From the NCBI GenBank assembly GCA_016209105.1, contig JACQWR010000027.1:1497-65496 (forward strand): a stretch of DNA of 64,000 nucleotides. The letters run 5' to 3'. Shown here in pieces: positions 37,293-47,134 of the stretch. This DNA comes from Deltaproteobacteria bacterium (GTDB lineage: Bacteria; Desulfobacterota; Syntrophia; Syntrophales; JACQWR01). The notes below the pieces were generated by a model. The model saw nothing but the letters and a program-made list of their open reading frames with translations. It ran no database searches and was not told the origin of the DNA. A program made the translations under genes and the position numbers. Numbering within the stretch: the first letter of the stretch is position 1; each line of letters opens with the position of its first letter.

Positions 37293-38294
37293 ATGCATCC
37301 TATGTTCAACAGTACATTGATAGAAGTGGCGGAAAAAACCCTGGCAAATAACGGCTTCCGCATTTCCTACGAGGATGGATGCGGGCTCGCCGCCCTTCCC
37401 GAAGAGGAAACAACGGCGCTGATCCTGTGCGCCGATAAGATCCGCAGGAAATATAAGGGAGACCGCATCACCACCTGTTCCATAACGAACGCCAAATCAG
37501 GCCTGTGCACGGAAGATTGTGCATTCTGCGCCCAGTCGGCCCATCACGAAACGGGCATCGAACCCCATCCCCTCATGAGTGAAGAGGAAATGGTAAATGA
37601 TGCGCTCAAGCTTCATGCCAGCGGCGCCAATGAGTTTTCCATGGTGACGAGCGGTTTCGCGCTCACGGATCAGGAACTGGAAACGATCGGCAGAGCAGCG
37701 GGCATGATAAAGGAAAAAACCGGGTTGAAACTCTGTTCCTCCCTGGGTGTGCTTACAGAAGCACGGGCCAAACAGCTCAAGAATAGCGGCATCAGCCGCT
37801 ACCACCATAACCTGGAAACCGCGCGGAGTTTCTTTGATCACGTATGCACCACCCATGATTATGAAGACGACGTGCAGACGGTGAAAATAGCAAAGGCGGC
37901 CGGCTTGAAAGCCTGCTCGGGCGGCATCCTGGGACTGGGTGAATCGTGGGAACAGCGGGTGGAGCTGGCAATCACCCTGCGGGACCTGGATGTGGATTCG
38001 ATTCCCGTCAACTTCCTGAACCCCATTCCCGGAACGAGGATGGGAGCGCGACCGCTCCTCTCCCCCATGGAAGCGCTCAAATGCATCGCTCTTTTCCGCT
38101 TCATCAATCCGAAGAAGGATATCATGATCTGCGGCGGCAGGGAGGTAACCCTGCGCGACCTCCAGTCCTGGATCTTCACGGCGGGCGCAAACGGCCTGCT
38201 CATCGGCAATTACCTGACCACCGCGGGCAGGGATATCAAGGCGGATATGGACATGATCAGAGATCTGAGATTAGTCGCCGAGAAAGGAGCTTGA
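37293..38294 (+). CDS. bioB: biotin synthase
   Basis: 333 aa. Radical SAM CTEDCAFCAQS, SSLGVL, YHHNLET and GLKACSGGILGLGES. The start could be ATG 37293 or 37302. Confidence 0.92.
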   Translation: MHPMFNSTLIEVAEKTLANNGFRISYEDGCGLAALPEEETTALILCADKIRRKYKGDRITTCSITNAKSGLCTEDCAFCAQSAHHETGIEPHPLMSEEEMVNDALKLHASGANEFSMVTSGFALTDQELETIGRAAGMIKEKTGLKLCSSLGVLTEARAKQLKNSGISRYHHNLETARSFFDHVCTTHDYEDDVQTVKIAKAAGLKACSGGILGLGESWEQRVELAITLRDLDVDSIPVNFLNPIPGTRMGARPLLSPMEALKCIALFRFINPKKDIMICGGREVTLRDLQSWIFTAGANGLLIGNYLTTAGRDIKADMDMIRDLRLVAEKGA

Positions 38295-38370: not shown

Positions 38371-39669
38371 ATGCGGGATTACGTGAAGGAAAAACCGCTG
38401 ATCATCGAGGAAGGCAACGGATGCACCTTACGGGACACCGACGGGAACGAATATCTGGACGGTGTCTCCTCTCTGTGGACAAACGTGCACGGCCACCGCA
38501 GGGAGGGGATAGACCGCGCCGTTAAGACGCAGCTGGGCAAGATCGCCCACTCGACCATGCTGGGACTCTCCAATGTTCCCGCCATCCGGTGCGCAAAGAA
38601 GCTGGTGGAAATCGCACCACAGGGACTGTCAAAGGTGTTCTATTCGGACAACGGCTCCACGGCGGTGGAGATCGCCCTCAAGATGGCCTTCCAGTACCAG
38701 CAGCAGGCTCCCGCAGGAGACCGGGCGAAGACGCGGTTTATTTCCCTGACCAATGCCTATCACGGAGACACGATCGGCGCGGTAAGCGTGGGTGGCATTG
38801 ACCTCTTTCACGCCACGTACAAAACGCTCCTCTTCTCCTCACTCAAGGCCGAATCGCCCTACTGCTACCGGTGCGTATTTGGAAAATCCTACCCCGACTG
38901 CGGCCTTGCCTGTCTCGGGCAGATGGAAGAACTGATGAAAAAGCATGCACATGAGGCGGCGGCGCTGATTATCGAACCACTCGTGCAGGGGGCGGCGGGG
39001 ATCATCGTCCAGCCTCCGGGCTATCTAAAGAGGGTGCGCGAACTCTGCACCCGGTACAACATCATCATGATCGCCGACGAGGTCGCCGTGGGATTCGGCA
39101 AAACGGGGACAATGTTCGCCTGCGAACACGAGGACGTCGCGCCCGATATCATGGCCGTGGCCAAGGGAATCACCGGCGGTTACCTGCCGCTCGCGGCAAC
39201 GCTCGCCACGGAAAAAATCTATGAAGGGTTCCTCGGCGAGTACGACGAGTTCAAGACCTTTTTCCACGGGCACACCTACACCGGCAACCCGCTCGCCTGT
39301 GCTGCTGCCGTGGCCAGCCTGGAGATTTTTGAGGAAGAGCGCACCCTCGAAGGACTCCAGGGGAAAATCAAACACCTCACGGAGCGACTGGAGTCCTTCC
39401 GTTCCCTGAAGCACGCGGGAGAGGTGCGGCAGCGCGGCTTCATGGTAGGCATAGAACTGGTAGTCGGGAAGGATACCAGAGAACCCTTTGCCCCGGCAGA
39501 GAAGATCGGCCACCGGATCATCCTCGAGGCGAGGAAACGCGGCCTGATTATCAGGCCCCTCGGCAACGTTATCGTCCTGATGCCGCCCTTGAGCATGACC
39601 ACGAGCGAGCTTGACCGTCTCTGCGACATCACCTTCGCGGCGATCCGGGCCGTCACGGAAGGGTTGTAG
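38371..39669 (+). CDS. bioA: adenosylmethionine-8-amino-7-oxononanoate aminotransferase
   Basis: Class-III aminotransferase: DEVAVGFGKTGTMFA and the PLP-Lys region MAVAKGITGGYLPL. Coordinates start at the first ATG, but the conserved DKKYIWHPFTQ motif is encoded in frame upstream (38338-38370), so the true start lies between 38275 and 38350. See findings. Confidence 0.85.
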   Translation: MRDYVKEKPLIIEEGNGCTLRDTDGNEYLDGVSSLWTNVHGHRREGIDRAVKTQLGKIAHSTMLGLSNVPAIRCAKKLVEIAPQGLSKVFYSDNGSTAVEIALKMAFQYQQQAPAGDRAKTRFISLTNAYHGDTIGAVSVGGIDLFHATYKTLLFSSLKAESPYCYRCVFGKSYPDCGLACLGQMEELMKKHAHEAAALIIEPLVQGAAGIIVQPPGYLKRVRELCTRYNIIMIADEVAVGFGKTGTMFACEHEDVAPDIMAVAKGITGGYLPLAATLATEKIYEGFLGEYDEFKTFFHGHTYTGNPLACAAAVASLEIFEEERTLEGLQGKIKHLTERLESFRSLKHAGEVRQRGFMVGIELVVGKDTREPFAPAEKIGHRIILEARKRGLIIRPLGNVIVLMPPLSMTTSELDRLCDITFAAIRAVTEGL

Positions 39670-39784
39670 ACGTGACCCTTCACTGCCGCTCTCCTCGCAG
39701 ATACGGCACGTTTAAAACAATGGCATTCCCGCATCCACGGGGATACCATGACGATGGCCGCATGGTTTTTACGTGGGAGTGTCC

Positions 39785-40069
39785 ATGAAGGGAACATTTT
39801 ACTTTGATCCGGCAGACCGGATTTATGCAGACCATTTCCCCGGACGGGCCGTTGTCCCCGGAAGCCTCATTGTCCATGCCTTCCTCCAGGAAGCGCACAG
39901 GGCGGAGGAGTTTGCCGGTGGCCGTTTCCTGGCGGAAGAGTTCCGCTTCACAGAGTTCATAGCGCCGGGCACATATTCTTTCACCATGGAGACCGATAAA
40001 GGCCGCCTGCGGTGCCGGCTCTACCATGAGGGGAAAACGGTGGTTACGGGTTTTTTTAAACCCGAGTGA
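39785..40069 (+). CDS. short hot-dog-fold FabZ-like protein (His-bearing half dehydratase)
   Basis: About 94 aa. ADHFPGRAVVPGSLIVHAFLQ aligns to the FabZ active-site motif [20 protein letters not shown]. GGGAG lies 5 nt upstream of ATG 39785; the ORF track starts at GTG 39773. Confidence 0.65.
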   Translation: MKGTFYFDPADRIYADHFPGRAVVPGSLIVHAFLQEAHRAEEFAGGRFLAEEFRFTEFIAPGTYSFTMETDKGRLRCRLYHEGKTVVTGFFKPE

Positions 40070-40112
40070 TGATATTGTATCGTCTCATTAATAATTGTCA
40101 TATCGGCCCCTT

Positions 40113-40269
40113 CGCCTGCTGTCATTCCGAGCGGAACGAGGAATCTTGTCGTGAAGCTCCCCGCTCACAGGGCGGGGCTTGCGGAGGGCGCCCCCGGTCA
40201 TGCTCGGGGCAGGCTCCGGGGAATATTTTTTCTCTGTAAATATATTCGTTAAGATTTCTCGTTTCACTC
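40113..40269. repeat. MITE-like element, family B, inserted between hot-dog gene and ACP gene
   Basis: 25-nt terminal inverted repeats: gtcattccgagcggaacgaggaatc (40113-37) and gatttctcgtttcactcgaaatgac (40245-69), 21/25 complementary. The internal module gtgaagctccccgctcacagggcggggcttgcggagggcgcccccggtca recurs at 47135-47250. Confidence 0.8.
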
Positions 40270-40333
40270 GAAATGACAGGTTATTCAAATTATTCATGGG
40301 ACATGACACTCTAATGAGAGAGAAAAAAGAGAT

Positions 40334-40687
40334 ATGAACGTTTTTGAAGAAATAAAAAGTATCCTGGCGGAAATCCTCGACGTGGAAGTAAACGAGGTGA
40401 CGCCGGAAAGCTACCTCATCAGGGAGCTGGGAGCCGAATCCATAGACCTCATGGAGCTTGCCGCGGCGCTGAACCAGAGATTCCGTATAGAAGTCAATGA
40501 GGAAGATGTTTTCCTCAGAGAGCTCAGGAACAATCTTGCGGACGCGGAGGCCGCAAAGGGGACGGATCGCTTTCCCTTTCTCACCGCCCGGAGACGGGAA
40601 GAGATCGTCTCCGAACTTGACGGCGGCCCCGTTCTCAAGGTTAAGGACGTGGTAAGTTACGTCACCTGGCAACTGGAAAGGGCATGA
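40334..40687 (+). CDS. acyl carrier protein with an internal about 35-aa insertion
   Basis: 117 aa. The phosphopantetheine site context is IRELGAESIDLMELAAAL. Canonical ACPs are about 75-80 aa. Extra segment LRELRNNLADAEAAKGTDRFPFLTARRREEIVSELDGGPVL lies before the last helix. Confidence 0.75.
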   Translation: MNVFEEIKSILAEILDVEVNEVTPESYLIRELGAESIDLMELAAALNQRFRIEVNEEDVFLRELRNNLADAEAAKGTDRFPFLTARRREEIVSELDGGPVLKVKDVVSYVTWQLERA

Positions 40688-41319
40688 TGTCGTCCCTCGA
40701 CGAACTTCTCATCGAGCGCAGAAGCATCAGAACGTACGGCCCCGAAACACCGCCCGAGGCATGGATCGAACAGATGATTAACCTCGCAGCCCAGGCGCCG
40801 TCATCGGGGAACACCCAGCCCGTCCGGTTCATCCGCGTCAATTCGCCGGAGGTAAAAGCCTCCCTGCAGCGGGCGATGAAATCGGGCCGCGAGCAGTTTC
40901 TGCAGGCGGCGGCAGGTTGCTCCAAGCCGAAAAATCTGAGAAACTGGATAAACGCCTATTACCGTTTTTCGGCGTTCATGTTTCAGGCCCCCGTCCTCAT
41001 CGCCGTGGGAACGGTCGCGCCGGCGTCCGGATTTTCACGTCGGCTTGCAGAGGCCGGTGTGATAGAGGCAGACAAAAAACGGGAATCCGACACGGACATC
41101 GCTGTAGGTTTTGCCCTCCAAAGCTTCATCCTCAAAGGCCAGGAGCTCGGTCTCGGTTCCTGCATATTGACGGCCCCGCTTGTTTTCATCTCCCGGATCG
41201 AGGAACTTCTCGGCGTCAGGGATGTAGAGATCAAATGCTTCCTCACCGTGGGCTTCCCCGGTGAGACGCCGCGGAAACCGAAAAAGAAGGGAGTCGCTGA
41301 TATCTATCGTCAAATATGA
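40684..41319 (+). CDS. nitroreductase-family flavoprotein
   Basis: 211 aa. ERRSIRTYGPE...AAQAPSSGNTQPVRFI signature. ATGA overlaps with both the ACP (upstream) and the KAS (downstream). Confidence 0.75.
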   Translation: MMSSLDELLIERRSIRTYGPETPPEAWIEQMINLAAQAPSSGNTQPVRFIRVNSPEVKASLQRAMKSGREQFLQAAAGCSKPKNLRNWINAYYRFSAFMFQAPVLIAVGTVAPASGFSRRLAEAGVIEADKKRESDTDIAVGFALQSFILKGQELGLGSCILTAPLVFISRIEELLGVRDVEIKCFLTVGFPGETPRKPKKKGVADIYRQI

Positions 41320-42551
41320 GTAACCATGAAACCACATCAAAACGGGTCGTCATCACCGCCATGGGGATTATCTCCTCGCTGGGTAAAACCCCGGAAGAGA
41401 TACTGGCCAGCATAAAAGAAGACCGTACCAGCTTCACCCTGCCGCCCTTCGATCAGAAGATGGTGGTCGCTCCCGTGGAGAATTTTGACCTCCGTAATTT
41501 TACCGGCCCCTTCAAAGACCGGCGCTATCTAAACCGCGGAGCGCAGCTCTCCGTCGCGGCCGCCATTTCCGCCCTGAGAAACAGCAACCTTGATGAAGAG
41601 ACGGCGGCAACGGCCGGCCTTTTCGTCGGTTCCGGCCCGAATTTCGACATCGGCGGTGAGCTCCCCGGCATCCATGCAGGGGAGATCGTCGAAGAAAGTC
41701 TGATGGCCCTCTGGATACTGAGGTTTCTGCCCAATACGGCGGCTTCCACCATTGCCCGGCTTACGGGGATGCACGGGGAAAACCTGACCGTTGCGACCGC
41801 GTGCACCGCCACGCTGCAGGCAATCGGAGAGGCGTTCCGCAAGATAAAGGACGGACACCTCAATCTGGCTCTCGCCGGAGGCGGCGACTCGCGCAACAAT
41901 CCCGGCGGCATCCTTGCCTACCGCAAGGCGAACGCCCTCTTCACCGGCGGTGACGACCCGCAGGCGGCGAGCCGCCCCTTCGATAAAAAACGGAAGGGCT
42001 TTGTGCCCGGGGAGGGAGGCGCCTTTTTCCTCTTGGAAGAGCGTGAGCACGCCCGGAAACGCGGGGCCATGATCTACGGTGAAATCTGCGGGTTCGGCGC
42101 ATCCATGGACGGATACAGCATGACGGCGCCGGACCCCGACGGCAGGTGGGAGGAAGCGGCAGTGCGGGCGGCCCTCGCGGAAGCGGGCATGTCCCCCGCC
42201 GATATCGCCGTCGTTGCCGCGCACGGCACCGGCACCGCACTCAACGACGCTATGGAGGCGGAACTTCTCGCCCGCATCTGGGGAGAAGGACGCACACCCC
42301 GCGTTATTGCGCTGAAGTCATGGATCGGCCACCTGTCGGTCGCCTGCGGGGCCGTGGAGCTCGGCATCTGCCTGACACTCATGAACAGGGGGTGTCTCCC
42401 CCGGATACGGAATCTCGAAGAACCGTGCCGGGATGGAATAAACTTTGTCCGCCGGGAAGAACCCGTTTCCCTCAAGACCCTCCTGGTGGAAAACTTCGGC
42501 TTTGGCGGCCAGAACAGCGCCCTGATCGTAAAAGCGCACGACGGCGCCTGA
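41316..42551 (+). CDS. beta-ketoacyl-ACP synthase, KAS I/II (FabF/FabB-like) type
   Basis: 411 aa. Active-site Cys in VATACTATLQAIGEAF, and His residues in AAHGTGTALND and KSWIGHLSVACG (Cys-His-His triad). Confidence 0.88.
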   Translation: MSNHETTSKRVVITAMGIISSLGKTPEEILASIKEDRTSFTLPPFDQKMVVAPVENFDLRNFTGPFKDRRYLNRGAQLSVAAAISALRNSNLDEETAATAGLFVGSGPNFDIGGELPGIHAGEIVEESLMALWILRFLPNTAASTIARLTGMHGENLTVATACTATLQAIGEAFRKIKDGHLNLALAGGGDSRNNPGGILAYRKANALFTGGDDPQAASRPFDKKRKGFVPGEGGAFFLLEEREHARKRGAMIYGEICGFGASMDGYSMTAPDPDGRWEEAAVRAALAEAGMSPADIAVVAAHGTGTALNDAMEAELLARIWGEGRTPRVIALKSWIGHLSVACGAVELGICLTLMNRGCLPRIRNLEEPCRDGINFVRREEPVSLKTLLVENFGFGGQNSALIVKAHDGA

Positions 42552-42570
42552 CGGGAAAAGCGGGTGATCC

Positions 42571-43071
42571 GTGGAAGACCGGGATATCGTCATTAATACG
42601 GGAATGCCAGGGCTGCAACTGCTCGATGCCATCACGCGCACGGATGAAAACGGCATCGGCGGCGGTTGCCTGTTTTCCGACGCCCCGCCCTGGCTGGGTG
42701 TCGAATCCCTCGCCCGGCTCGGCGCCTTTCATGTGCGCTTCCTCACCGGTTTCGGGAAACACGCCTTCCTGGCAAAGATAAAACGCTGTCTCCTGCCGCG
42801 ACGGGAACCCCTGACGGGCCGGTACCGTCTGACGGGGAAACTTCTCAGCCGGAGCAGTTCCTCGTTTTTCTATGACCTGGAGGCTTGGAACGGGAAGGAA
42901 CTTGAAATTGCCGGTCAATTCCTGTATGCAGCGATTGACTATGACAATGCCTTCAGGAAGGAATTGCTGCAGGATCACTATCAAAGGCGCTTTACATGTT
43001 TGACGAACGCTACCGAAAAAGGCTCCTCTCGAGAAAAGACGCCGGACTTCTCCGTACGCCCCCGGAAATAG
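42571..43071 (+). CDS. hypothetical protein, probable hot-dog fold (Glu-bearing half dehydratase)
   Basis: 166 aa. WLGVESLARLGAFHV aligns to FabZ ILEAMAQATGIL but lacks the HFP His. The downstream pattern FLAKIKRCLLPRREPLTGRYRLTGKLL...LEAWNGKELEIAGQF resembles the hot-dog sheet. The 3' end overlaps bioF by 76 nt. The start could be GTG 42571 or ATG 42604. Confidence 0.45.
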   Translation: MEDRDIVINTGMPGLQLLDAITRTDENGIGGGCLFSDAPPWLGVESLARLGAFHVRFLTGFGKHAFLAKIKRCLLPRREPLTGRYRLTGKLLSRSSSSFFYDLEAWNGKELEIAGQFLYAAIDYDNAFRKELLQDHYQRRFTCLTNATEKGSSREKTPDFSVRPRK

Positions 43072-44153
43072 CAAGCCGGGAGGGAAAGTATATATGGATC
43101 GGCGGGAGAAAGGTGCTCAATTTCTCTTCCAACGACTACCTGGGACTCGGCGTCTCGGAAAAGCTCCGACAAAAGGTTTCCCGCAATTTCCGGAAATACG
43201 GCACCTCGTCCTCGGCCTCGCGGCTTGTCTCCGGCAACTATGCGGTGATCTCCCGCGCGGAAGAGGAATATGCCCGCTACTTCGGCTACGAGGCCGCCCT
43301 GTTCTTCCCCAGCGGTTACCAGGCGAATCTCGGCATCCTCTCCGCCCTCTTCGAAAAGGGCGACTCTCTGTTCTTCGACAAACATCTCCACGCGAGCAGC
43401 GTGAAGGGAATGGTTTTAAGCGGGGCATCCTTCCAGGGATACAACCACAATTCCCTCTCCCACCTGCGCCGGCGTCTGGAGGCAGGCAGGGGGCGCCAGA
43501 CTGCTGTCCTGACGGAATCGCTCTTCAGCATGGACGGTGATTTCCTCGACGTTCAGGGGTTCGGCACATTGAAACGTGATTACGGTTTCCTTGCCGTCGT
43601 GGATGAAGCGCACGCCTTCGGCGCCGTGGGAGACGGAGGCCGCGGCATTGCCCGGCCGGTGGCGGATATCGCCGTGGGAACCTTCGGCAAGGCCCTGGGG
43701 CTGTTCGGGGCATTCGTCCTGCTGCCCGCAACAGGGAAGGAATACCTTTTCAATTTTTCCTCGCCCCTCATTTACAGCACCACCCTTCCCGAGGCCCATG
43801 CCGCCTCCGCCCTGGACATACTGGAAATGGTCATTGCGGGCGATAACGCGCGAAAAAATCTACAGGCAGTGAGCCGCGCCATGAAGGAACGGCTGCTCGC
43901 CCAAGGACTCACGGTAACGGGAGACGCCCACATCATCTCCTGGGAGGTAGGCAGTGAAAGCCGCGCCGCGGAAATAGCGGCTGAGCTTCTCGCACGGGAC
44001 ATCTTCGTCTTTCCCGCCCGCTATCCCACGGTGCCCGCGGGCAGGGCTCTGCTCCGGATCGGCATGACTGCCCTGCACACGGAAGAAGACGTACAACACT
44101 TCCTCTGCTGCCTGAAAAATATATGGGAAAAAACGGGGTGGAACAATGAATGA
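42996..44153 (+). CDS. bioF: 8-amino-7-oxononanoate synthase
   Basis: 385 aa. LNFSSNDYLGLG, VDEAHAFGAVG and the PLP-Lys motif VGTFGKALG. Confidence 0.9.
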   Translation: MFDERYRKRLLSRKDAGLLRTPPEIASREGKYIWIGGRKVLNFSSNDYLGLGVSEKLRQKVSRNFRKYGTSSSASRLVSGNYAVISRAEEEYARYFGYEAALFFPSGYQANLGILSALFEKGDSLFFDKHLHASSVKGMVLSGASFQGYNHNSLSHLRRRLEAGRGRQTAVLTESLFSMDGDFLDVQGFGTLKRDYGFLAVVDEAHAFGAVGDGGRGIARPVADIAVGTFGKALGLFGAFVLLPATGKEYLFNFSSPLIYSTTLPEAHAASALDILEMVIAGDNARKNLQAVSRAMKERLLAQGLTVTGDAHIISWEVGSESRAAEIAAELLARDIFVFPARYPTVPAGRALLRIGMTALHTEEDVQHFLCCLKNIWEKTGWNNE

Positions 44154-44838
44154 CCTTTACGTAGCGGGAACCGATACGGGCGTGGGGAAAACGGTGCTGT
44201 CGCTTCTCCTCATGCAGTTTTTGTTCGAGCAGGGCAAGCGGCCCTTTTATCTCAAGCCCCTGCAAACGGGCTGCAAGACCCCCCGTGATGAGGACAGCGA
44301 TGCGGCGTTTATCTACCGGCATGTGGAATCGCTCCGGGACGGGGACCCGGGAGAATCGGTGATTTACTGCTTTGCCAACCCCAAGGCGCCCTTTTTCGCG
44401 GCCCGCGACGAAGGCAGCGCCATAGACCTGAAACTCATGGAACGGATCGTGGCGGAAAAAAGCCGCGCCTACTCGCCGCTTGTCATCGAAGCGGCCGGGG
44501 GTGTCCTGGTTCCGGTTGCGGAAGGAACGCTGATCGTGGACATCATGCAAACCACGGGGGCAAAGGTCCTGATTGCCGCCCGCGCCGGCCTGGGCACGAT
44601 CAACCACACCCTACTGTCTATAGAAGCCCTACAGGCACGGGGAATAAAGCCCGCAGCCATCATCTTCATAGATGCAGCGGAAACGCCGCCGGAAATGATC
44701 GCCGAAAACAGGGAGGCGATAGAAGCCTGCTCCGGCATAAAAGTCGCCGGCGTAATCGGCAGGATCGCCGATTTTTCCCATCCTCCCCGCGATAGTTACC
44801 GCCCCATCGAGTTTCTCTTCCGGGAAGGCCTGGTATGA
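44146..44838 (+). CDS. bioD: dethiobiotin synthase
   Basis: 230 aa. P-loop VAGTDTGVGKTV, YLKPLQTGC and IEAAGGVLVP. Overlaps bioF by 8 nt. Confidence 0.9.
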   Translation: MNDLYVAGTDTGVGKTVLSLLLMQFLFEQGKRPFYLKPLQTGCKTPRDEDSDAAFIYRHVESLRDGDPGESVIYCFANPKAPFFAARDEGSAIDLKLMERIVAEKSRAYSPLVIEAAGGVLVPVAEGTLIVDIMQTTGAKVLIAARAGLGTINHTLLSIEALQARGIKPAAIIFIDAAETPPEMIAENREAIEACSGIKVAGVIGRIADFSHPPRDSYRPIEFLFREGLV

Positions 44839-45749
44839 GAAAAACCATCCTTCCCGTCGCCGACCTGCTGAATTTTTTCCTCGCGAGAAAGGTATTCAGA
44901 CAAAAGCCCCCGCTGATTGCAAGCTTCAAACTCACCTATCGGTGCAATCTCGCCTGCCGGACATGCCCTTTCCATCTGCGGGCCAACGAAGAAAACGCGC
45001 ACATGAGCTGGGACGGAGCCGTGAACGCGCTTGCGGCCCTGAAAAATTGCGGAACCCGTATTGTCGTATTCGAGGGGGGGGAACCGCTTCTCTGGCGGGA
45101 TGGCGCGCACGATTTTCCGGAACTCGTTACCTATGCCAAAAAGCTTTTCCTCCGCGTCGGCGTGACCACGAACGGCACGCTGCCTCTCGATGTGCCCGCA
45201 GACGTTCTCTGGGTGAGCCTCGACGGCCTGAAGGAAACACACGACCGGCTCCGCAGCGGCTCGTTCGACCGGGCATGGAACAACCTCCGGGTGACGAAAC
45301 ACCCCAAGGTTTTCGTTCATTTTACGATGAACCGGGAAAACTGGCGGGAACTCGAATATCTGCTTAAACGTCTCGGAGAAATCCCGGCCGTCTGGGGCAC
45401 GACGCTGCAGCTTTTCTATCCCTACGGACAGGGCGAGGAGGCGCTGTCCCTCTCCCCCGCGGAGCGCCGGGAAGCCCTGGAAACAGCCATACGCCTGAAG
45501 AAGAACTATCCCCTCCTGAATTCCCGCAGCGGCCTGAAGGCCATGATCGAGAACACCTGGTCTTGCCATGACGACATCCTCGTCAACGTGGACCCCGGCG
45601 GTACAATCACGAGCGGATGTTATGTGAAAAACCGCGGCACGATCAGCTGCCGCGATTGCGGTTTCACGCCAGTCACGGAGGCCTCCGGCGCCCTCGATCT
45701 GTCTGTCCCTTCCCTCTTCGCCGGCTGGCGCATCTTTCTCCAGACTTGA
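44835..45749 (+). CDS. radical SAM protein of unassigned function, translationally coupled to bioD
   Basis: 304 aa. FKLTYRCNLACRTCPF (CxxxCxxC), FEGGEPLL, and C-terminal auxiliary Cys residues (SCHDD...SGCYVKNRGTISCRDCGF). ATGA overlap with the bioD stop. Confidence 0.8.
   Translation: MRKTILPVADLLNFFLARKVFRQKPPLIASFKLTYRCNLACRTCPFHLRANEENAHMSWDGAVNALAALKNCGTRIVVFEGGEPLLWRDGAHDFPELVTYAKKLFLRVGVTTNGTLPLDVPADVLWVSLDGLKETHDRLRSGSFDRAWNNLRVTKHPKVFVHFTMNRENWRELEYLLKRLGEIPAVWGTTLQLFYPYGQGEEALSLSPAERREALETAIRLKKNYPLLNSRSGLKAMIENTWSCHDDILVNVDPGGTITSGCYVKNRGTISCRDCGFTPVTEASGALDLSVPSLFAGWRIFLQT
45714..45743 (+). repeat. direct repeat copy A (native 3' end of the radical SAM gene)
   Basis: ctcttcgccggctggcgcatctttctccag recurs at 48366-48395 with 29/30 identity. 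Confidence 0.85.
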
Positions 45750-45865: not shown

Positions 45866-46750
45866 TTATAGGTGATTATCCGCAAGACCTGTCGGCAGCA
45901 TTTGAGCGATTTTTTCCAAAGTCCATTTATCTTCCCCACGGTAAATCACCGATGTTCTTTCCGGTTCTGAATAAAGGCTGATCATACCCGCGCCTACAAA
46001 GAATGTCCTGCCCGTTATGAGAGCTGCATTTTCTGTTGCCAGATACGTTGCAAACGTAGCGACATCTTCCGGCTTTGAATTTTCCATCTCATTCAGTTCG
46101 CTGATTTTCCCCTGTCGGATCCATGCTTGTTTCCGCTTTTCGTCAAAATGACGTGTCAGCGCCAGAGGGCGTATCGCATTGCACGTTACATTATATTTTG
46201 CCATATCTCTGGCAACAGCTCTTGTGAAACCGATAACACCTTCTTTTGCTGCAGCGTAATTTGAACACCCTAATGTTTTTCCCAGTCCTGCTCCCGATGA
46301 CATGTTGATAATCCGCCCATATTGATTCTGCTTCATAACTTCAGCGGCCGCCCTCGTACAATAGAACGTCCCGTATAGATTCACTTTAACGATCTTGTCC
46401 CAGTTTTCTTCGGTAAGATTAAAGATCATCTTATCAAGCACAATGCCGGCATTGTTTACCAGTATGTCCACCCTGCCGAACGTGCCAACCGCGGCGGCGA
46501 TTATATCTCTGCCGCCTTGCCATGTTTCCACTGAACTGTCGTTAGAAACTGCTTCGCCGCCTTCTTTCCGGATTTTTTCAGCCGCTTTTTCCGCTAACCC
46601 TTGGATTTGTCCGGTCCCCGTCGGGCCGACGCCATAATCGTTAACGACTATGCGCGCTCCTTCACGCGCCATTTCCCGTGCTATGGCAAGTCCAATGCCC
46701 TGGCCGGCCCCGGTAATAACAGCTACTCTGTTGTTAAGAAGCTTACTCAT
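45866..46750 (-). CDS. SDR-family oxidoreductase, MFE-2/(3R)-hydroxyacyl-CoA dehydrogenase-like
   Basis: Start at MSKLLNNRVAVITGAGQGIGLAIA. VVNDYG...NNAGI...MSSGAG...YAAAKEG (Ser-Tyr-Lys). The overall pattern resembles the dehydrogenase domain of multifunctional enzyme type 2. The upstream part of the ORF-track entry (to 46900) is a repeat element. Confidence 0.75.
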   Translation of the reverse strand: MSKLLNNRVAVITGAGQGIGLAIAREMAREGARIVVNDYGVGPTGTGQIQGLAEKAAEKIRKEGGEAVSNDSSVETWQGGRDIIAAAVGTFGRVDILVNNAGIVLDKMIFNLTEENWDKIVKVNLYGTFYCTRAAAEVMKQNQYGRIINMSSGAGLGKTLGCSNYAAAKEGVIGFTRAVARDMAKYNVTCNAIRPLALTRHFDEKRKQAWIRQGKISELNEMENSKPEDVATFATYLATENAALITGRTFFVGAGMISLYSEPERTSVIYRGEDKWTLEKIAQMLPTGLADNHL

Positions 46751-46763
46751 ACTATTTGAAGCT

Positions 46764-46871
46764 CTCTGCAGCAAGCTGCAGAGAATCTCCGATTCCTCAG
46801 GAACATCATCGTTCATCATTCGCTCGCTTACCCCTCGGCAAGCCGCGGGGAATGCGCTCGCAGCCGAATTC
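46764..46871 (+). repeat. two-hairpin intergenic repeat, family D, copy 1
   Basis: Hairpin 1 is CTCTGCAGC-aa-GCTGCAGAG (46764-83). Conserved spacer ...gattcctcagg...ttcatcattcgctcgctta. Hairpin 2 is cccctcggcaagccgcgggg (46831-50). Tail aatgcgctcgcagccgaattc. The second copy is at 57742-57850. Confidence 0.8.
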
Positions 46872-47134
46872 CATTTTATTTTTATAATTAGCACAACCAT
46901 AAATCTGACAATCAGATTCGACCGTCAGAGTATAGGATAAGGGAATCTTGTGCGTCAAAGGAAATTTGGCGGCAAAACAGGCAATACCGAACGGAACGTT
47001 GCGAAAAGAATCGCGGCGCAATCAACCGTCGCGACCGCGGCTTCACCCCGGTAAGGGAGGCCTTGATTCAATTTCCCCCGTGGGCTGATTCCGAAAACAT
47101 GAAGGGTGAGCAGCGCCGGTAAGGCTTCCAGAAA

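Follow-up and report, generated by a model that had tools for sequence, protein, structure and literature searches.

The window analyzed in this study is a stretch of 64,000 nucleotides from a Deltaproteobacteria bacterium of the Syntrophales (contig JACQWR010000027.1), and our subject is a pair of hot-dog-fold proteins encoded in a biotin operon within it. The operon runs as a single unit on the plus strand and begins with bioB (37293-38294; Pfam Radical_SAM and BATS) and bioA (38371-39669; Pfam Aminotran_3). The gene for the small hot-dog subunit, a putative ApeI-like protein and histidine donor, follows at 39785-40069 if read from an ATG or at 39773-40069 if read from a GTG, and a non-coding gap of 264 nt (40070-40333) separates it from the gene of a 117-aa acyl carrier protein (ACP; 40334-40687; PP-binding, 3.8e-11). 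Next come a nitroreductase-like flavoprotein, which is a candidate enoyl-ACP reductase (40684-41319; Pfam Nitroreductase, 6e-29), and a FabF-like beta-ketoacyl-ACP synthase (KAS; 41316-42551), which has the N and C domains of ketoacyl-synt and matches the NCBIfam fabF model at 1.3e-87, under its equivalog cut-off. The large hot-dog subunit, the putative glutamate donor, is a protein of 166 aa with a GTG start (42571-43071). It is followed by bioF (42996-44153; Pfam Aminotran_1_2), bioD (44146-44838; Pfam AAA_26/CbiA) and a radical SAM gene (44835-45749) that overlaps the bioD stop, all on the same strand. The genes around the operon are unrelated to it: those upstream are molybdopterin and redoxin genes, and those downstream are a short-chain dehydrogenase/reductase (SDR) gene in convergent orientation and polA. 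No bioW was seen in the domain annotation of the operon and its flanks, and an Rfam search of the operon returned zero matches. In GenBank, the small open reading frame (ORF) is annotated as a hydroxymyristoyl-ACP dehydratase (MBI4634419.1) and the large ORF as a hypothetical protein.

This operon represents the atypical cluster for pimeloyl-ACP that is found in Desulfovibrio and related bacteria. An extended biotin operon was predicted in 2004 as a new pimeloyl route in Desulfovibrio (PMC545781), and in 2023 transposon fitness data showed that the extended bio cluster is required for growth without biotin (PMC10102598). In D. vulgaris, both of the FabZ-like genes in the cluster, DVU2560 and DORF42491, are needed when biotin is lacking (PMC10102598); therefore, the two genes are not redundant. 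The role of the nitroreductase as an enoyl-ACP reductase is a proposal of the same study (PMC10102598). In Desulfovibrio, Syntrophales, Desulfobacterales and relatives, pimeloyl groups are synthesized without BioC/BioH, BioW, BioI or BioZ.

The residue numbers of the small subunit used here refer to the 98-aa form that starts at GTG 39773. The ATG at 39785 is the GenBank start (94 aa) and has GGGAG five bases upstream, which agrees with the length of about 94 aa given in the preliminary description of this DNA. Residues 20-39 read DHFPGRAVVPGSLIVHAFLQ. The Pfam FabA model (PF07977) matches residues 12-41 only, at 2e-4 and 21.4 bits against a cut-off of 23, and a profile of 22 homologues matches FabZ chains of the PDB at E=2.8e-5. 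The profile alignment (iyadHFPGravvPGslivHaf) places His21 (codon CAT, 39833-39835, in the HFPG motif) on the catalytic His of FabZ and His35 (codon 39875-39877) on the catalytic Glu, so that the acid is lost; an alignment of the single sequence also puts His21 on the FabZ His. Conservation was counted over 76 homologues from genome contigs. His21 is kept in all of them (76/76), as are Phe22 and Pro23, and position 35 is His in 58, Gln in 12, Arg in three, Ser and Gly in one each and a gap in one, but never Asp or Glu. In a Desulfovibrio-type locus (L078), this position is Ala. The homologue alignment has no conserved acid elsewhere in the central helix.

The AlphaFold2 (AF2) model of the small subunit is a compact hot-dog, its antiparallel sheet wrapped around a long central helix, with a predicted local distance difference test score (pLDDT) of 89.6. 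Its top Foldseek match in the PDB is the ApeI chain 6qsr_A, with a template modeling score (TM) of 0.79 and a root-mean-square deviation of 2.2 A over 98 columns, and the matches that follow are FabZ and FabA at a probability of 1.00. The homologues of the small subunit carry precomputed PF22818.3 (ApeI-like) labels, weakly so in locus L080, and the small ORF itself gives no match with our local, older copy of Pfam (PF22818.2). An hhalign comparison of the small subunit with ApeI of E. coli aligned just 29 columns.

For the large subunit, single-sequence searches of Pfam, NCBIfam and the PDB gave zero matches, and the Pfam ApeP-like model (PF22817) matched neither this ORF nor 10 of its relatives. 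A word-indexed search recovered seven relatives, and an exhaustive profile search of 1.84 billion proteins recovered 213 cluster representatives, nearly all of 140-170 aa. When 75 diverse members (25-57% identity) were aligned, one column alone proved invariant, that of Glu45 (codon GAA, 42703-42705, in the central-helix motif E-x-L-A-Q). This residue is also present in 50/50 genome loci. The positions A48, Q49, H54, R56, H64, F66, L67, Y137 and L144 are conserved in at least 90% of the aligned members, the core motif of which is l-E-A/S-l-A-Q-l-g-A-x-H-v-R; in the window, residues 35-52 read FSDAPPWLGVESLARLGA. The only chains in the PDB that the large-subunit profile matches are those of FabZ, at E values of 0.08-0.8 that are not significant alone, and the segment flllEalAQ is aligned with vlivEALAQ of FabZ, which places Glu45 on the catalytic Glu of FabZ. 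The first His of the protein is residue 54, and the column 14 residues before Glu45, where a FabZ-type His would stand, is Gly or Ala in the relatives. A His followed 14 residues later by Glu or Asp in one chain, as expected for FabZ and FabA, occurs in neither ORF. The preliminary description had drawn these correspondences by eye, with a small ORF that keeps the FabZ His but has His at the Glu position and a large ORF that keeps the Glu but lacks the HFP His. Both motifs lie at the coordinates that it gave, and the profile alignments and the counts in the two families bear out the correspondences on each side.

Several relatives of the large subunit from high-GC genomes (P0173, P0188, P0197 and P0204) have low-complexity N-terminal extensions of 100-300 residues rich in Ala, Gly and Pro, together with insertions between the last hot-dog strands, and none of them has a Pfam domain. 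We considered the long members of the family as possible fusions and rejected this explanation, their extra length being low-complexity insertions. In the window, the end of the large-subunit gene overlaps bioF out of frame by 76 nt (42996-43071), and the same overlap is found in locus L001. The overlapping tail (residues 146-166) is predicted to be disordered, and most family members are approximately 20 aa shorter.

The preliminary description had left the fold of the large ORF to be checked. The AF2 model has a mean pLDDT of 69.6, with core blocks at 84-93 and a disordered N-terminus and tail, and shows a hot-dog. Its central helix of 20 residues (40-59) is wrapped by an antiparallel sheet with four long strands, and the model also has further strands and an additional helix at the C-terminus. 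According to Foldseek, the model resembles FabZ structures of the PDB (8ayc, 3d6x, 7qv0 and PfFabZ; probability 1.00) at approximately 2e-5, and hot-dog thioesterases of the PaaI, YbdB and 4HBT types stand alongside them at approximately 2-6e-5; TM reaches 0.68 among these matches. Because these thioesterases use a Glu or Asp of the central helix, the large protein might be a homodimeric hot-dog thioesterase or another acyl-ACP enzyme with Glu45 as its base or nucleophile, and the small protein would then act separately. The conserved His54, His64 and Arg56, which belong to the large-subunit family itself, would also suit such an enzyme. However, thioesterases are absent from the PDB matches in the sequence and profile searches with the large subunit, where only FabZ chains appear, with E-A-L-A-Q aligned. 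Moreover, an hhalign comparison with the ApeP alignment extends over 100 columns with the Glu aligned (P=5e-4, probability 31%). The hydrolysis of pimeloyl-ACP would be counterproductive because BioF uses the thioester, and the operon shows no bioW; in addition, the His-only small subunit would be left without an acid partner in all 76 homologues. We therefore regard a thioesterase as unlikely.

In FabZ, the active site is formed by a His of one chain and a Glu of the other, which are His58' and Glu72 in the H. pylori enzyme (PMC5143422). If one chain has only the His and the other only the Glu, their dimer can form exactly one site of the FabZ type, and homodimers of either chain would have none. 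The complementary pattern of His and Glu in the two families is far beyond chance. From the complementary conservation, the joint retention of the two genes (described below) and the requirement for both of them in D. vulgaris, we conclude that an obligate heterodimer of the ApeI:ApeP type is the best explanation. On the strength of sequence comparison, structural models and analogy with ApeI:ApeP, the pair is thus probably a FabZ-type dehydratase of 3-hydroxyacyl-ACP that works as a heterodimer with a single composite site and acts on the ACP-bound dicarboxyl intermediates of the operon. In the mechanism that we propose, the catalytic His21 would come from the HFPG loop of the small subunit and the catalytic Glu45 from the central helix of the large subunit. 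The second, symmetry-related site would be dead; there, Gly31 of the large subunit would be paired with position 35 of the small subunit, which is His, Gln or Ala. The substrates would be 3-hydroxyglutaryl and/or 3-hydroxypimeloyl groups on the operon's own ACP, and the dehydratase would serve a methyl-ester-free route to pimeloyl-ACP that is independent of BioC/BioH and feeds BioF. The preliminary description had spoken of two half hot-dog proteins, which is apt in that each would be half of a dimer; in the AF2 models, however, each protein is a complete single hot-dog.

A heterodimer of a different kind must also be considered. In HadAB of Mycobacterium tuberculosis, HadB carries both catalytic residues, Asp36 and His41, in a hydratase-2 motif, and its non-catalytic hot-dog partner HadA forms the acyl channel (PMC4491049). 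If the window pair were built in this manner, one subunit would bind the substrate or set the chain length, His21 would act with another acid, and Glu45 would be structural; the conserved basic residues of the large subunit fit such a role in substrate binding. However, Glu45 is the single invariant residue of its family and stands exactly at the catalytic position of FabZ and ApeP, and the central helix of the small subunit offers no conserved acid as a substitute. Furthermore, a regular-expression search found the hydratase-2 motif in neither window ORF. We consider this arrangement very unlikely.

Several observations weigh against the composite-site heterodimer. The two hot-dog genes are not adjacent but lie 2.5 kb apart with three genes between them. 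The large-subunit model matches PaaI/YbdB-type thioesterases as well as it matches FabZ, and the sequence link of this subunit to ApeP and FabZ is weak (P=5e-4; E=0.08). The small and large families have no similarity detectable by hhalign (probability 0.2%), no interpretable signal emerged from the mutual information between the two proteins in 51 pairs, and no natural fusion of the two was found among the best 150 of the 213 large-subunit representatives. A mirror-tree analysis across 29 loci, which covered nine proteins of the operon, gave correlations of approximately 0.5-0.9 for all pairs and did not single out the hot-dog pair. Finally, the window cluster has no ketoreductase gene to make a 3-hydroxy substrate. 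In the same analyses, the mutual information between position 35 of the small subunit and position 31 of the large subunit, which would face each other in the dead site, was 0.04, and the partial correlation of the small and large subunits was 0.16, which is unremarkable among pairs of operon proteins. That the two families are each other's paralogues cannot be shown, given the hhalign probability of 0.2%.

The distribution of the two genes was determined from a scan of one genome per species that was queried with the small-subunit alignment and yielded 74 loci. Nearly all of these belong to metagenome-assembled genomes (MAGs) or isolates of Syntrophales, Syntrophobacterales and Desulfobacterales, including Desulfobacter vibrioformis DSM 8776, the cluster of which is named in an earlier study (PMC10102598) and corresponds to locus L017. 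In one locus (L004), a cluster of bacterial type is binned as a Methanosarcinaceae archaeon MAG; this assignment probably reflects mis-binning and not an archaeal occurrence. Hidden Markov model searches of six-frame ORFs revealed the common order bioB, bioA, small subunit, SDR, ACP, nitroreductase, KAS, large subunit, bioF and bioD. The ACP gene, the FabF-like KAS gene and the two FabZ-like genes lie between bioA and bioF in the window, L001, L003-L074 and L078. Of the 56 loci whose sequence continues downstream for 3.3 kb or more beyond the small-subunit gene, 50 encode the large subunit. Among the six exceptions, L010 has an insertion, and in L002, L007, L023 and L040 the KAS and large-subunit genes were not found downstream. 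The remaining exception, L075 (622-921), is a Syntrophus aciditrophicus contig in which bioA is followed by a 20-aa remnant of the small subunit and then directly by bioF and bioD, the entire insert of ACP, KAS and hot-dog genes having been deleted.

The cluster was seen in at least four architectures, each with the hot-dog pair, and nothing besides this pair and the ACP gene is constant. The Desulfovibrio-type locus L078 (4200-7450) has the pair without a nitroreductase, and the window (39773-43071) and L001 have it without an SDR. In L080 (5696-7516), both the SDR and the KAS are absent, which leaves only the small subunit, ACP, nitroreductase and large subunit. The same division of residues is observed in L078, where the small subunit has His and Ala and the large subunit has LEAMAQ. 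The nitroreductase gene is syntenic in most related loci. The ACP gene is kept in all related loci, and the NCBIfam ACP models match the window ACP under their cut-offs. This protein has a C-terminal extension of approximately 55 residues past the PP-binding domain, outside the coverage of the ACP model, and its counterpart in the Desulfovibrio-type cluster is 128 aa long with zero Pfam matches. The radical SAM gene after bioD resembles the PTO1314 family (TIGR03961, 1.2e-34, under cut-off) and, among the loci compared, stands after bioD in just the window and L001; the 74 genome loci, L078 and L080 do not have it there.

In approximately 70 related loci, a FabG-like SDR gene lies between the small-subunit and ACP genes. 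This gene is missing from the window cluster, L001 and L080, and the 264-nt gap of the window (40070-40333), when searched for remains of an SDR gene, showed none. The gap contains a long imperfect inverted repeat that folds at -99.5 kcal/mol (z=-4.6), is present as a single copy in the window and has no Rfam match; it may be a footprint similar to that of a miniature inverted-repeat transposable element or a regulatory hairpin. The convergent SDR gene at the end of the operon (45866-46900, minus strand) encodes 344 aa (adh_short, 8e-47). Its resemblance to the SDRs encoded within the clusters of other loci is only generic (24% identity, E=8e-5), and its counterpart is absent from L001. It is possible that the 3-hydroxy substrate comes from a housekeeping FabG or from this convergent SDR, the latter being unsupported as a stand-in. 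Apparently, the ketosynthase and ketoreductase steps can be outsourced by the cluster.

The window cluster has no ketoreductase and L080 lacks the KAS as well; therefore, the substrate need not be a 3-hydroxyacyl-ACP made by the cluster. Accordingly, one could suppose that the pair performs a chemistry other than dehydration on an ACP-bound dicarboxylate, such as decarboxylation, isomerization or cyclization, by comparison with the FabZ-like AmcE of cispentacin biosynthesis. The small ORF, ACP and KAS have weak NCBIfam similarity to AmcE, AmcB and AmcF, respectively. However, all of these matches fall far under their cut-offs and FabZ models score better, and in approximately 70 related loci a FabG-like SDR gene does adjoin that of the small subunit. 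Moreover, the canonical dyad of dehydratases consists of a His and a Glu arranged as in FabZ. A non-dehydration role thus appears quite improbable to us, and dehydration by the heterodimer remains our preferred reading.

The substrate that such a dehydratase might accept can be considered from the basic residues of the large subunit. The codons of His54, Arg56 and His64 lie at 42730-42762, and the three residues, close together in the sequence, are on or just after the central helix. In the genome loci, R56 is conserved in 51/51, H64 in 50/51 and H54 in 48/51. In H. pylori FabZ, the monomer that bears Glu72 also provides Gly79 at the tunnel fork (Glu+7) and Phe83 as the gate of the back door (Glu+11) (PMC5143422). 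By helix register only, Ala52 of the large subunit would correspond to Gly79 and the invariant Arg56 to Phe83. We tentatively suggest that the hydrophobic tunnel of FabZ may have been turned into a short cationic pocket, in which Arg56, His54 and His64 would line the distal tunnel and bind the omega-carboxylate of C5 or C7 dicarboxyl-ACP, but we regard this as doubtful. Positive charge in the distal tunnel would favor substrates with a free carboxylate at their end, and free-carboxylate substrates were suspected for the enzymes of the cluster in general (PMC10102598). If the pocket is real, it would be a structural trick for building pimeloyl-ACP without the methyl-ester disguise of BioC/BioH, and it would explain why the hot-dog pair and the ACP, and not the KAS and ketoreductase, form the invariant core of the cluster.

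The cluster and its two FabZ-like genes have already been published, and the heterodimer design is known from aryl-polyene clusters. In the literature that we searched, the D. vulgaris proteins are called FabZ-like; we found there no proposal of a split-site heterodimer, no link of the biotin pair to ApeI:ApeP and no assignment of the large-subunit family. If the split-site reading is true, it assigns one enzymatic step of this pimeloyl route and gives a function to an unannotated family of approximately 213 sequence clusters that has no Pfam model. Furthermore, it would mean that the two proteins should be co-expressed and not assayed singly, with His21, Glu45 and Arg56 as targets for mutation, and that the ApeI/ApeP design extends from pigment secondary metabolism to cofactor primary metabolism.

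Among known systems, the double hot-dog dehydratase (DH) domains of polyketide synthases (PKS) and fatty acid synthases (FAS) have one site per pseudo-dimer, with the His in the N-terminal hot-dog and the acid in the C-terminal hot-dog. Their two halves are fused in one chain, whereas those of the window are encoded by separate genes; ApeI, ApeP and the small-subunit profile weakly match 2cf2_C, which is a FAS DH domain, and PKS_DH_N. The window pair shares the hot-dog fold with homodimeric FabZ; its small subunit retains the HFPGxPxxPG loop, and its large subunit retains the E-A-x-A-Q helix. However, each chain of FabZ has both residues and the dimer has two sites, whereas the window proteins have one residue each and could form at most one site, and the small subunit is approximately 55 residues shorter than FabZ. 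The preliminary description had chosen HadAB as the analogue. HadAB and HadBC are, like the proposed pair, heterodimers of two single hot-dogs with one active site, but HadAB belongs to the MaoC-type lineage, unlike the FabZ-like window ORFs. In the key respect, this analogy does not hold, and ApeI:ApeP is the better one, because both catalytic residues sit in HadB, and the motif that carries them is missing from the window.

The D. vulgaris cluster is the same system as that of the window. Its two FabZ-like genes (DVU2560 and DORF42491) are placed as they are in the window, the small one after bioA and the other between the KAS gene and bioF, and an ACP gene and a FabF-like KAS gene stand between the two. 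The window differs from the D. vulgaris version in having an in-cluster nitroreductase, as do the Syntrophobacter and Desulfobacter versions, and in having no FabG-like SDR.

The split-site architecture that we infer already exists in a crystallized enzyme. ApeI/ApeP is described as a dehydratase heterodimer that has only one active site (PMC8041823), and the structure 6QSR is entitled 'The Dehydratase Heterocomplex ApeI:P from Xenorhabdus doucetiae'. The residue roles in ApeI and ApeP that we use were taken from the sequences of the crystallized chains and one secondary citation. In the aryl-polyene cluster of E. coli CFT073, ApeI (WFNGHFAVQPLLPGVAQLDW) keeps the His and has Asp at +14, and ApeP (NLPGWFALELMAQ) keeps the Glu and has Phe at the His position; the X. 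doucetiae chains 6qsr_A (GHFPVQPLLPGVAQID) and 6qsr_B (LPGWFAIEMMAQ) follow the same pattern, and ApeP sequences have ELMAQ or EMMAQ at the Glu. Like the window pair, ApeI and ApeP are single hot-dog proteins encoded by two non-adjacent genes, with the His (in HF(P)) in the small subunit and the Glu alone (E-L/M-M-A-Q in ApeP), without the His, in the large subunit. The small ORF appears to be of the small-subunit type of this design, and the large subunit is ApeP-like in its plan, being a Glu-only hot-dog of approximately 150 aa in which P-x-W precedes the Glu by three residues. The differences lie in the details. ApeI has Asp at His+14, where the window small-subunit family has His, Gln, Arg or Ala, and the window large subunit differs from ApeP in its additional helix at the C-terminus and in the invariant Arg56, together with His54 and His64. 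The genomic setting is also different: ApeI:ApeP belongs to an aryl-polyene type II PKS cluster with a chain-length factor and ApeQ, whereas the biotin operon of the window pair has a single KAS and lacks a chain-length factor. The substrates of the window pair are likely to be short dicarboxylates, in contrast to the aryl polyenes of ApeI:ApeP.

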